Under the pieces are notes generated by a model. That model was not told the DNA's origin. It worked only from the letters and a program-made list of their open reading frames with translations, and did no database searches. Made by a program: the position numbers and the translations under genes. Shown here piece by piece: positions 30-24,740 of a stretch of DNA of 32,000 nucleotides. The stretch spans positions 1-32,000 of the forward strand of contig CAKQHZ010000002.1 of NCBI GenBank assembly GCA_934246625.1, written 5' to 3'. The stretch is from an uncultured Alphaproteobacteria bacterium. Lineage in GTDB: Bacteria > Pseudomonadota > Alphaproteobacteria > Rs-D84 > CACZYB01. Each line of letters starts with the position of its first letter. Within the stretch, counting starts at the first letter, position 1.

Positions 30-779
30 ATGAAAACCATGAAGAAAAAGAAATTAGCGGTGATAGGGATAGCGGGAGTAGCGGGAATGCTTTACTCTGC
101 AACACCAGCCTCCGCTCAAACATTTTATCAATGTATGCCGATAACTTGCCCAGCAGGAAGTTATCTTTTAAATGGAAAATGTGAAATTTGCCCAAGAGAT
201 TCTTATTGCGTAAATTCACAAAAGACAGCTTGCCCAACTGGAACCTATTCACATTTTGGTGCAAGAAGTTTCAACGATTGTGCAAATAATTCGGTATCTT
301 GGAGCTTTAATTATGTATATCAAGGAGAAAATTGCACTAAACAATCTAGTGCTGGTGGATGTTGTTTCTCAAATGTATTGTTTGATAGAAATGAAATAAC
401 AACCAATGCAACTCGAGGATATTTCTGTCAAACTTATGGAAAAAACGGCAACAACAGTGCAACAGATTGTGTTTCTAAAGTAGAAGGTTCTGATACATTA
501 ACATACGATAGAAATACAAAATATCTTGTATCAATCTCAGGGCAAACAGATATTTCAAACCTTCCAATATCTGAAAAACTTGCAATAATACAAAATTGTG
601 AAAATAATCCAAAAACTTGTGCTCTCATTATTGGTTATGACACATTCTGCAAACCAGGTTGCGGTAACGAATACAAATATATATCTTCATCATGCAATGG
701 CGGTGGTTCAACTTGTAAAAGAGAAAATGGAAAACTATATATCTATAATGCAAGTGTTCACGCTCAAAAAAGTCTATAA
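30..779 (+). CDS. secreted cysteine-rich protein with CxxCPxG[ST]Y repeats (ephrin-receptor-like / GCC2_GCC3 / furin-like type), paralog 1
   Basis: 249-aa ORF with a GGAG Shine-Dalgarno 7 nt before the ATG. Sec-type signal peptide MKTMKKKKLAVIGIAGVAGMLYSATPASA|Q. Motifs CPAGSY, CEICPRDSYC, CPTGTYS and AGGCC. 18 Cys in the mature part by my count. A hairpin terminator follows immediately. Confidence 0.8.
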   Translation: MKTMKKKKLAVIGIAGVAGMLYSATPASAQTFYQCMPITCPAGSYLLNGKCEICPRDSYCVNSQKTACPTGTYSHFGARSFNDCANNSVSWSFNYVYQGENCTKQSSAGGCCFSNVLFDRNEITTNATRGYFCQTYGKNGNNSATDCVSKVEGSDTLTYDRNTKYLVSISGQTDISNLPISEKLAIIQNCENNPKTCALIIGYDTFCKPGCGNEYKYISSSCNGGGSTCKRENGKLYIYNASVHAQKSL

Positions 780-785
780 AACAAT

Positions 786-809
786 CCCCTCCTTTGAGGG
801 GAATTTTTT
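786..809 (+). terminator. intrinsic terminator of the 30..779 gene (inside repeat copy 1)
   Basis: Stem CCCCTC (786-791) / GAGGGG (796-801), loop CTTT, then AA + T6 (804-809). Confidence 0.8.
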
Positions 810-813
810 ATAC

Positions 814-842
814 TTGCAAAAAGAAGCGAATCGTGATAATAT
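814..842 (+). promoter_or_regulatory. sigma70-like promoter inside repeat copy 1
   Basis: TTGCAA (814-819), 17-nt spacer, TAATAT (837-842). The same cTTGCAA -35 form recurs at other promoters in this window (6207, 24694). Confidence 0.6.
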
Positions 843-848
843 ATAAAA

Positions 849-919
849 CATAGACATAGAGAATAAGAAACAAACAACTCTTTGAAAGGCTGATTACCTT
901 TAAAGGGATTTTTTATTTT
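849..919 (+). ncRNA. candidate ~70-nt sRNA, copy 1
   Basis: Predicted TSS is about 7 nt after the -10 element. An A-rich, apparently unstructured 5' part (cauagacauagagaauaagaaacaaacaac) is followed by a hairpin of 879-889 with 897-907 (7-nt loop, one mismatch, two G-U pairs) and a U-rich tail. There is no ORF. The next gene has its own promoter. Confidence 0.5.
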
Positions 920-2288: not shown

Positions 2289-2340
2289 ACAAAAGATAGA
2301 GGAATTATACATCATATAAAAATAATTTGCAAGAATTTTA

Positions 2341-6470: not shown

Positions 6471-6908
6471 ATGAACAAATCTTTTATCTTTAGTTGTTTA
6501 TTTTGTGCAACTATACCTTTCAACACCTCGTCCTTTGCAAACGAAGGATATGGAGCTTACCCTGGAGGAGGCACAAGTTATACAACTTTTCCAACCAACA
6601 CAATATCCGAACTTACAAAAGTTTTACAAAAATATTGTGTTCCAGATAATGCCTCAGTTTGTAATTCCAAATATCAGGCAACTTTTAATGAAAGTTTCAA
6701 CACGTGTGAATGCAAAAGCTGTGGACTTTTTTATAACAAAAAAACACGTCTATGTGAACAATGTCCAAAGGGAACATACACAACCGACCGACACTCTTCT
6801 GAATGTTTAAAAATTGATTGCGGTGGCGGTTATCGTGTTGTTTTAATGGAAGACACAGAAACTTGTCCAAAAGGTTATAAAAAAATCAAAGTATCAATAT
6901 GTAATTAA
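6471..6908 (+). CDS. secreted cysteine-rich protein, paralog 2
   Basis: 145 aa. GGGAGG Shine-Dalgarno upstream. Signal peptide ending in SSFA|NE. Contains CEQCPKGTYTT and ETCPKGY. 11 Cys after the signal peptide by my count. Confidence 0.75.
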   Translation: MNKSFIFSCLFCATIPFNTSSFANEGYGAYPGGGTSYTTFPTNTISELTKVLQKYCVPDNASVCNSKYQATFNESFNTCECKSCGLFYNKKTRLCEQCPKGTYTTDRHSSECLKIDCGGGYRVVLMEDTETCPKGYKKIKVSICN

Positions 6909-6913
6909 AATAT

Positions 6914-6982
6914 GGGTGGAAGTTTTTTTATCATAGTCTTTGCTTCCACCCTCCCAAAAGCACTTATTGGGGAAAGTGCTTT
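6914..6982 (+). other. two perfect 9-bp stem-loops in the paralog 2 - paralog 3 spacer
   Basis: GGGTGGAAG (6914-6922) pairs with CTTCCACCC (6943-6951) around a 20-nt U-rich loop. AAAGCACTT (6957-6965) pairs with AAGTGCTTT (6974-6982). Confidence 0.6.
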
Positions 6983-7013: not shown

Positions 7014-7466
7014 ATGAAAATAAATACTATACTTGCAATCGGAACATTACTTTATCCACAAATTGCAAAAGCAGACTTATATAAATGTGAACTTTGCCCT
7101 GCTGGAACCTACAGCGATGGTAAAAGTCTTGAATGTTCAAAATGTCCAGTTGGAACCTATTCAAACAAAAGTGGTGTATCATCTTGCACCCCTTGCACAA
7201 ACTTTCGTCCTGGTTTTTCTCACTATACAACAAGTGGTGGCACAAAAAATGAATGTGCTTGGAGTTGTAATGCTGGCCTTATTTACACATCTAGCAATGC
7301 TGGGGGTTGTTGCCATGAACCTGCTACCCCAAACCATAACTCCTCATCACCAAAAACATGTAAAAGAGAAGCCATTTGCAGAAGTTATTCTGGAACATTT
7401 TTATGGTCAATTGGAGGCGGTGCCTGCACTCCTCTTGGTTCAAAAAAATGTATTGAATACAACTAA
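7014..7466 (+). CDS. secreted cysteine-rich protein with CxxCPxGTYS repeats, paralog 3
   Basis: I chose the start at ATG 7014 (AAGGAGA Shine-Dalgarno 6 nt upstream), not 6912. Signal peptide MKINTILAIGTLLYPQIAKA|D. Contains CELCPAGTYS, CSKCPVGTYS and AGGCC (shared with paralog 1). 14 Cys by my count. Confidence 0.8.
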   Translation: MKINTILAIGTLLYPQIAKADLYKCELCPAGTYSDGKSLECSKCPVGTYSNKSGVSSCTPCTNFRPGFSHYTTSGGTKNECAWSCNAGLIYTSSNAGGCCHEPATPNHNSSSPKTCKREAICRSYSGTFLWSIGGGACTPLGSKKCIEYN

Positions 7467-7499
7467 ATACTCCCCTCCTTTGAGGGGAATTTTTTATAC

Positions 7500-7528
7500 T
7501 TGCAAAAAGAAGCGAATCGTGATAATAT
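7500..7528 (+). promoter_or_regulatory. sigma70-like promoter inside repeat copy 2
   Basis: TTGCAA (7500-7505), 17-nt spacer, TAATAT (7523-7528), identical to copy 1. Confidence 0.6.
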
Positions 7529-7534
7529 ATAAAA

Positions 7535-7605
7535 CATAGACATTGAGAATAAGAAACAAACAACTCTTTGAAAGGCTGATTACCTTTAAAGGGATTTTTT
7601 ATTTT
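7535..7605 (+). ncRNA. candidate ~70-nt sRNA, copy 2
   Basis: Same promoter, A-rich body and terminator hairpin as copy 1. The next gene downstream is convergent, so this promoter has no mRNA to drive. The one a/t difference (7544) lies in the single-stranded part. Confidence 0.5.
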
Positions 7606-7649
7606 CAATCCTTACAAATTAAAAAACTCCCCATAAAGAGGAGTTTATT

Positions 7650-24627: not shown

Positions 24628-24693
24628 ATAAAATTAAAATATAATCGCAAAACAAAATAAAATCAATAATTTCAATAAAGTTAAAAAAATTAC

Positions 24694-24721
24694 TTGCAAA
24701 CAAAAAGTAATATGATATAAT
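24694..24721 (+). promoter_or_regulatory. promoter of tRNA-Pro
   Basis: TTGCAA (24694-24699), 16-nt spacer, TATAAT (24716-24721), about 20 nt before the mature tRNA 5' end. Confidence 0.55.
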
Positions 24722-24740
24722 ACCTTATGTTTTTTCAAAG

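Follow-up and report, generated by a model that had tools for sequence, protein, structure and literature searches.

A near-identical 135-bp repeat in an uncultured gut alphaproteobacterium as a probable small-RNA gene of a multi-copy family

We analysed a stretch of 32,000 nucleotides of alphaproteobacterial DNA, hereafter the window, in which a 135-bp non-coding repeat occurs twice on the plus strand, at positions 785–919 (copy 1) and 7471–7605 (copy 2). Each copy is likely to combine the terminator of the upstream gene with a complete small-RNA (sRNA) gene that is transcribed independently. A sigma-70-type promoter (CTTGCAA, 17-nt spacer, TG-extended TAATAT) would drive the transcription of an RNA of ~70 nt, which would consist of an unstructured purine-rich 5′ half followed by a Rho-independent terminator hairpin with a U-tail. 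We infer transcription from this promoter, the ends of the RNA and its action in trans from the sequence, and a trans-acting regulatory RNA is the most likely putative function. The unit would belong to a multi-copy family of ‘sibling’ sRNAs, outside Rfam, in a clade of AT-rich uncultured gut Alphaproteobacteria. The element is thus of an ordinary kind with a conventional explanation and involves no new type of mechanism. It adds a putative, unannotated sRNA family, predicted to be strongly expressed, to this uncultured lineage, for which we know of no regulatory RNAs.

The repeat and its anatomy

A first-pass annotation had described the two copies as identical except for one position, and direct comparison bears this out: within 135 bp there is a single mismatch, with A at 858 in copy 1 and T at 7544 in copy 2. 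In a repeat search of the window, the match widens to 141 nt at 98% identity (779–919 and 7465–7605). A match of 134 out of 135 positions within 32 kb cannot have arisen by chance. The identity had been placed 5–6 nt past the stop codons of the upstream genes; it does begin just past the stops, at measured distances of 5 nt for copy 1 and 4 nt for copy 2.

The first-pass annotation had also considered that the region might be an assembly duplication artefact, for which only the near-perfect identity of the copies speaks. Both copies, each with its own unique flanks, are present in more than 10 independent assemblies from various gut samples and assemblers (L001/L004, L002, L005, L006, L013, L026–L031 and L036–L038), and strain- and locus-specific substitutions are found in some of these. 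The artefact is thus already refuted and retains practically no probability. Short Logan contigs (L003, L015, L018 and L020) have an end inside the unit, as would be expected if a true repeat exceeds the k of the assembler, and the repeat explains why contigs of these genomes recurrently break when assembled from short reads.

Each copy consists of two modules, the terminator of the upstream gene (785–811 in copy 1) and a gene-like unit (813–919), so that there are two separate hairpins, each followed by a T-run, with a promoter-like site in between. The first hairpin (785–811, plus strand; stem TCCCCTC/GAGGGGA, loop CTTT, T-run) serves the upstream 249-aa gene as its intrinsic terminator. These first 27 nt occur only in the species of the window and are missing from the copies of other genomes. 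The T-run of this terminator may double as an A/T-rich UP-like element for the promoter of the RNA.

The predicted promoter of copy 1 (813–842, plus strand) has the pattern CTTGCAA-N17-TGaTAATAT, with the −35 element CTTGCAA at 813–819, a 17-nt spacer that holds the invariant GCGAATCGTG (826–835) and the TG-extended −10 element TAATAT at 837–842. The predicted promoter of copy 2 (7499–7528, plus strand) has the same sequence. Across 15 copies from five genomes, the −35 element, the spacer core and the −10 element are invariant. With 8/12 matches to the Escherichia coli consensus (4/6 in TTGCAA and 4/6 in TAATAT), this promoter falls below the threshold of our generic promoter scan (9/12) and was therefore not listed by it. 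The −35 heptamer CTTGCAA is common to the unit and to both tRNA genes of the window, which suggests a lineage-specific consensus for strong promoters. The promoters of these tRNA genes (Ser-tga, 2297–2332, minus strand; Pro-tgg, 24693–24726, plus strand) have the form CTTGCAA-N16/17-TATAAT. As they share CTTGCAA at a spacing of 16–17 nt, the promoter of the unit would represent a strong promoter in its local form.

The predicted transcript of copy 1 is non-coding, has a length of ~70 nt and would extend from about 849 to 918 on the plus strand, with a single-stranded A/G-rich part at the 5′ end followed by the terminator hairpin. Its start and first ~11 nt are predicted to lie in a variable patch at 848–859 (plus strand). 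The corresponding transcript of copy 2, also ~70 nt, would extend from 7535 to 7604 (plus strand), with the patch at 7534–7545 and the hairpin at 7564–7593. The ~30 nt between the −10 element and the second hairpin are unstructured and purine-rich. The Rho-independent terminator of the RNA (878–919, plus strand) has the stem CTCTTTGAAAGG / CCTTTAAAGGG, the loop CTGATTA and the U-tail T6AT4-5. Its hairpin (878–907) comprises 11 pairs and one bulge, with −7.4 kcal/mol when folded alone, and the terminator is the most conserved part of the unit across species.

The predicted transcript contains no start codon on the plus strand, and there is no open reading frame (ORF) on that strand. When the covariance models of Rfam 15 were run on the window, only the two tRNAs reached the gathering score, and the region of the unit returned only chance-level matches at E ≤ 10 (E ≥ 1.1, at most 18 bits).

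On the minus strand, an ORF starting with ATG lies over the promoter region in all copies; a 3-nt indel keeps its frame, and the motif RF(A/V)xFCK is common to these ORFs. The minus strand might thus encode a small hydrophobic peptide similar to type I toxins, with the plus-strand RNA as its antisense partner, a reading that we consider extremely improbable. The ORFs have no Shine–Dalgarno sequence, although the genes of this genome have strong ones; they vary in length between 19 and 35 aa with a variable C-terminus, and the first ATG is lost in one strain. Furthermore, the shared residues overlie the −35 element and the spacer motif, so that conservation at the DNA level explains them. The small minus-strand ORF was therefore rejected as a coding sequence.

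A more serious alternative is that the unit is transcriptional punctuation only, that is, a (bidirectional) terminator or an insulator, with any short transcript being functionless. An A-rich tract, a hairpin and a U-tract are also compatible with a plain bidirectional terminator, and the predicted fold pairs the A-rich tract with the U-tail, as in such terminators. The conservation would then reflect the needs of termination and promoter insulation in a compact genome. A convergent downstream gene is present in 5/9 loci, and the unit lies 5–22 nt behind a co-oriented gene in four loci. In addition, no target was found with RNAduplex among the 33 translation-initiation regions of the window, where the best energy was −14.1 kcal/mol compared to a mean best of −14.6 kcal/mol for shuffled RNAs. 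A terminator, however, has no need of a promoter 60 nt upstream, yet the −35 element, the spacer motif and the −10 element are invariant across genomes. The genes upstream of both copies are already served by the separate terminator hairpin inside the repeat, and the convergent gene beside copy 2 has its own terminator at 7624–7646. Moreover, the ordinary terminators of the window are neither repeated nor conserved like the unit, and the conservation of the loop and the bulge far exceeds what termination needs. We thus regard mere punctuation as unlikely and prefer the reading as an sRNA gene.

Further promoter-like sites are found directly beyond the unit. Downstream of copy 1, the site TTGACA-N17-AATAAT (933–961) has its start within ~15 nt of the U-tail, and the same applies to a site TTGACA-N17-TATAAT at a copy in another MAG (L008, ~60–100, minus strand). 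With such a site right beyond the U-tail, the putative sRNA gene would be squeezed tightly between two transcription units.

Family members in related genomes

Using an exact 22-mer of the hairpin, we found four copies in another MAG, JAAVBN01 (‘Mgla_MAG_18-bin_5’). Further loci were taken around orthologues of RNase E/G and scanned with an nhmmer profile, which detected two copies in L017 (JAAVBO01), two in L019 and one in L024 (CALXYK01). The RNase E/G of these genomes is 95% (JAAVBN01), 94% (L017 and L019) and 82% (L024) identical to that of the window species. In two further species, with RNase E/G identities of 84% (L021/L047) and 67% (L046), nhmmer detected no unit within the 20-kb loci, and the syntenic site in the former contains an ordinary terminator without the unit. 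Two matches to a 20-mer of the hairpin in JGI metagenomes were rejected as chance matches of 20–21 nt on contigs of 39–42% GC, with no further similarity.

The part comprising promoter, RNA and terminator is thus present in at least four other related genomes, with 1–4 copies found per genome. At least two homologous copies occur in the window (two), JAAVBN01 (four), L017 (two) and L019 (two). The possibility that the repeat is a generic high-copy intergenic repeat, which the first-pass annotation had left standing, does not hold as formulated, as we find a low-copy gene family.

Similarity among the copies extends from ~8 nt 5′ of the −35 element (about −45) through the U-tail, and the flanks beyond are unrelated among all copies. 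Since the similarity is confined to the stretch from the −35 region to the U-tail, the unit has limits as expected for a gene. Within it, the blocks CTTGCAAAA, [G/A]CGAATCGTG, the −10 element, ACAT and the 3′ 44 nt (hairpin and U-tail) are invariant or nearly so, whereas neighbouring positions vary. The single-stranded part of the RNA differs strongly between species. The helix of the terminator is kept via one compensatory change (U·G to A–U in L024), two consistent changes and a shifted bulge; this covariation is weak, as 8/11 pairs are invariant and 33 of 500 shuffles score as high or higher.

The spacer motif [G/A]CGAATCGTG (826–835 and 7512–7521) is invariant across the family members, and it is a perfect palindrome, CACGAATCGTG, in three of the JAAVBN01 copies. 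By its sequence, the motif could be an operator, and the unit might be controlled by a regulator that recognises it. The RNA itself might act via base-pairing of its single-stranded A/G-rich segment or via a protein bound at the invariant hairpin and U-tail.

The genomic contexts of the family members are diverse. In one context, the unit follows priA by 22 nt and precedes groES by 86 nt; in another, it follows a miaB-like gene by 16 nt. Elsewhere it is flanked by a 212-aa gene and secG, or is divergent from paralogous genes of ~200 aa. One copy in the JAAVBN01 MAG is divergent from a Cys-rich gene. Because these contexts are unrelated, the tie to the two paralogous genes of the window is not a property of the family. 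The first-pass annotation had regarded the module as a 3′ flank associated with these genes and had proposed to count copies and upstream genes in relatives. The count results in 1–4 copies found per genome with a Cys-rich neighbour found once and otherwise unrelated neighbours, and the association is not supported, as the conserved core recurs elsewhere.

The paralogous ~200-aa proteins (L008:393–980, L010:2279–2884 and L017:11839–12477) have no Pfam match and are encoded divergently beside three members of the family. This suggests that, in those genomes as well as in the window, gene and sRNA were duplicated jointly as segments.

Multiple copies, sharp boundaries, positions near stop codons and broken assemblies might also be explained by a small non-autonomous mobile element or cassette (MITE-like, Correia-like or similar to integron attC sites) that inserts after genes. 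Such an element would be expected to show terminal inverted repeats and target-site duplications, which are absent, and the flanks are not duplicated. A search for terminal repeats in the unit detected only the two internal hairpins and the complementarity of the A- and T-runs. A domain search of the window ORFs found no integrase or transposase, and the number of copies found per genome is low. Furthermore, positional orthologues are kept between related genomes (L017 and L019). No match to the unit was found by BLASTN in distant mode against plasmids and phages or in a scan of viral contigs. An integron attC site was rejected specifically, as the fold consists of two independent hairpins and not of one long imperfect palindrome, and as the integrase domain is absent from the window ORFs. 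The mobile-element reading is thus largely refuted already, and we rate it as very improbable.

Divergence of the unit and of the neighbouring genes

To put the near-identity of the copies into context, we compared the window to strain L013 (96.6% identity over 17.5 kb). Between the two, divergence is ~9% at 4-fold degenerate sites, 2.3% in intergenic DNA and 2–3% at the nucleotide level in most other genes (range 0.4–4%). In contrast to these values, there are no substitutions in the 2 × 122 (244) sites of the unit that lie outside the variable patch, where the intergenic rate would predict 5.6 (P = 0.003) and the rate of 4-fold degenerate sites 22 (P = 1e-10). All seven substitutions found in copies 1 and 2 fall into the 12-nt patch (848–859 and 7534–7545).

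Within the species, the patch is polymorphic at 848, 849, 850, 855, 858 and 859, with seven alleles among 14 full copies. In these 14 copies, 6/13 sites in the patch are segregating compared to 2/122 in the rest of the unit (Fisher P = 6e-6). The seven changes in 26 patch sites exceed the genome-wide rate at 4-fold degenerate sites (P = 0.007), but not the rate of the adjacent genes, which is elevated locally (P = 0.14). On the latter ground, the patch is not demonstrably under positive selection, and we regard it as unconstrained.

Several observations point to exchange between the loci. Two alleles of the patch (…AAAACATAGACATTGAG… and …AAAATATAGACATTGAG…) are located at copy 1 in some strains and at copy 2 in others. 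Copies are 91–97% identical within a genome and 70–85% identical between genomes. For instance, the positional orthologues M10 and L017_a, which both lie 3′ of RNase E/G, are 79% identical, whereas M10 and its own paralogues share 92% identity.

The absence of substitutions outside the patch and the restriction of polymorphism to the patch indicate that purifying selection freezes the module except for the patch. The sharing of alleles between loci and the higher identity within genomes indicate that homogenisation is also at work. We therefore conclude that purifying selection and gene conversion both contribute to the near-identity. In the proposed scenario, purifying selection would spare only the first ~12 transcribed nt, and occasional gene conversion would add concerted evolution. 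The first-pass annotation had offered either a stronger constraint on the module than on the upstream genes or recent copying, homogenisation or a mobile cassette. The former is supported, with 0/244 non-patch substitutions compared to a divergence of 14.8% and 7.1% in the upstream genes; of the latter, homogenisation is retained and the mobile cassette is dropped.

The gene upstream of copy 1 (30–779, plus strand; stop codon TAA at 777–779) encodes a Cys-rich protein of 249 aa, and the gene upstream of copy 2 (7014–7466, plus strand; stop codon TAA at 7464–7466) encodes a Cys-rich protein of 150 aa. Both have an apparent N-terminal signal peptide, as read off the translations by eye. The two proteins are distant paralogues, in agreement with the earlier description (BLASTP, 29% identity over 108 aa, E = 9e-6), and a third paralogue is the 145-aa Cys-rich gene at 6471–6908. 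The 150-aa protein matches the Cys-rich repeats Ephrin_rec_like and TNFR_ELAPOR1, and a homologue search with it returned only three close relatives.

Between the window and L013, the nucleotide divergence quoted above (14.8% for the 249-aa gene and 7.1% for the 150-aa gene) compares to 2–3% for their neighbours. Among strains, two alternative C-terminal modules occur in the 150-aa gene, and both stop 5–7 nt before the unit. In the window, L036–L038 and L015, these modules end in …GACTPLGSKKCIEYN and …CKTPGQVIYR. In L036 and L037, the flank directly 5′ of copy 2 resembles the copy 1 flank of L013. Judged from these sequences, the divergence and the module swap look like cassette-type variation of surface proteins. 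The contrast between unit and genes thus arises because the genes of the Cys-rich secreted proteins are themselves hypervariable. The sharp junction past the stop codon is most simply explained by a frozen gene that abuts a fast-turnover gene in a compact genome, with the unit being, at least passively, a conserved end-point for allelic recombination. The locus neatly illustrates, on a small scale, a common pattern in which a non-coding gene is frozen and the neighbouring genes of secreted proteins diversify fast.

By analogy with the Sma/Cla repeat on the 3′ side of the pilin loci of Neisseria, the unit could have its main function in recombination, as a homology anchor for swapping alleles or modules of the Cys-rich secreted-protein genes. 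The hypervariability of the upstream genes, the C-terminal modules that both stop shortly before the unit, the copy 1-like flank upstream of copy 2 and the Cys-rich gene that adjoins one copy in the other MAG would fit such a role. However, Cys-rich neighbours are absent at most copies in other genomes, and the architecture of promoter, RNA and terminator is left unexplained. In addition, any conserved flank is a passive end-point of recombination, which may be a side effect. We thus consider a dedicated anchor improbable.

Just as improbable in our estimate is a modular RNA, in which a frozen scaffold carries a fast-diversifying 5′ segment that might be under diversifying selection and provide each strain with its own guide or seed, and/or in which the unit might drive the cassette-like exchange of the adjacent surface-protein genes. 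The scaffold in this doubtful reading would extend from the promoter, whose spacer resembles an operator, over the A-rich tract to the invariant hairpin. The 12-nt 5′ segment evolves at or above the neutral rate, with its seven alleles in 14 copies exchanged between loci, and is located near hypervariable secreted-protein genes. The 5′ end of the predicted RNA is the least constrained segment of the unit. Normally, an sRNA with a 5′ seed is conserved most strongly in that seed. The unconstrained 5′ end is thus unusual and counts against our preferred reading as an sRNA gene, as does the strong divergence of the single-stranded part between species.

Another similarity was observed near the third paralogue. 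The stretch at 6899–6955 is 84% identical to L007:1218–1278 and comprises a gene 3′ end with a terminator hairpin (GGGTGGAAG…CTTCCACCC). These stretches follow the 145-aa Cys-rich gene in the window and, in the JAAVBN01 MAG, a Cys-rich gene of 139 aa, and the DNA around them shows no similarity at the nucleotide level.

Known systems and genomic setting

Our preferred reading as an sRNA gene places the unit closest to sibling trans-acting sRNAs, such as Qrr1-5, LhrC1-5, NgncR_162/163 and the duplicated CsrB (PMC4211561; PMC6262261; PMC9973317). Like these, the unit occurs as near-identical copies that are intergenic, non-coding and short (~70 nt for the predicted RNA), with a predicted promoter and Rho-independent terminator of its own. 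The copies of sibling sRNAs arise by duplication and stay similar, as is the case here. There is no sequence or Rfam relationship to them, and in most of them the seed is the most conserved part, whereas in the unit conservation is lowest at the 5′ end and highest in the terminator hairpin.

Other sRNA genes with their own promoter, such as MicL and DapZ, lie in or just past the 3′ end of protein genes. The unit resembles this type in that its predicted promoter lies only a few tens of nt past the stop of a co-oriented upstream gene and in that the terminator is possibly shared after priA and the miaB-like gene. It differs in that the window contains a separate terminator hairpin between the stop codon and the sRNA promoter. 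Furthermore, other members are divergent from their neighbours, and the position at a 3′ end is not a trait of the family.

Multi-copy sRNA families of Alphaproteobacteria include alpha-r14 or ‘cuckoo’ RNAs and AbcR1/2. With these, the unit shares an alphaproteobacterial host and several dispersed copies per genome. Unlike them, it has no C-rich anti-SD loops of the CCUCCUCCC type, a single hairpin and no Rfam match.

In Neisseria, the conserved Sma/Cla repeat is located 3′ of the pilin loci pilE/pilS. The repeat studied here is similar in being conserved, non-coding and directly 3′ of diverged surface-protein paralogues that exchange sequence, but members of its family are also found apart from such genes and are built like transcription units. 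Like attC sites, MITEs and Correia elements, of which the last can carry promoters and terminators, the repeat is short and follows the stop codons of unrelated or diverged genes. In contrast to them, the unit has a low copy number and lacks a spanning palindrome, terminal inverted repeats, target-site duplications and an integrase.

The window has a GC content of 31.6% and is an ordinary Gram-negative chromosomal segment. It contains genes for LpxA/LpxI, an RND efflux system, MgsA, UDG, L31 and Gmk, as well as ComEC, RecG, HU, FabH, PlsX, tRNA-Ser and tRNA-Pro. For L31 and the neighbouring RNase E/G, close homologues carry the label ‘Alphaproteobacteria bacterium’, and the nearest cultured relative that we found is Caenispirillum, whose RNase E/G is 57% identical. 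Based on the source names of the homologues, the host is therefore an uncultured gut alphaproteobacterium. The unit was seen in Hadza and other human-gut assemblies, and the MAG names suggest a rodent gut source for some of the relatives.

Two further observations concern other parts of these genomes. First, beyond the DUF5131 gene near copy 1, a 217-aa gene and a resolvase replace the tRNA-Ser and epimerase genes in one strain (L027:2459–3736), which may be a strain-specific insertion or rearrangement. Second, the window shares another non-coding repeat of ~330 nt with L004 (29050–29380, plus strand, and L004:9099–9400; 76% column identity). In L004, it forms a long leader directly 5′ of a gene of 138 aa; in the window, an SD-like site, the destroyed ORF ATG-TAA and a terminator come after it. 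This repeat contains conserved hairpin blocks and has a sub-threshold match to the Rfam family sRNA-Xcc1 (25 bits compared to a gathering score of 53), and it may be an undescribed cis-regulatory leader.
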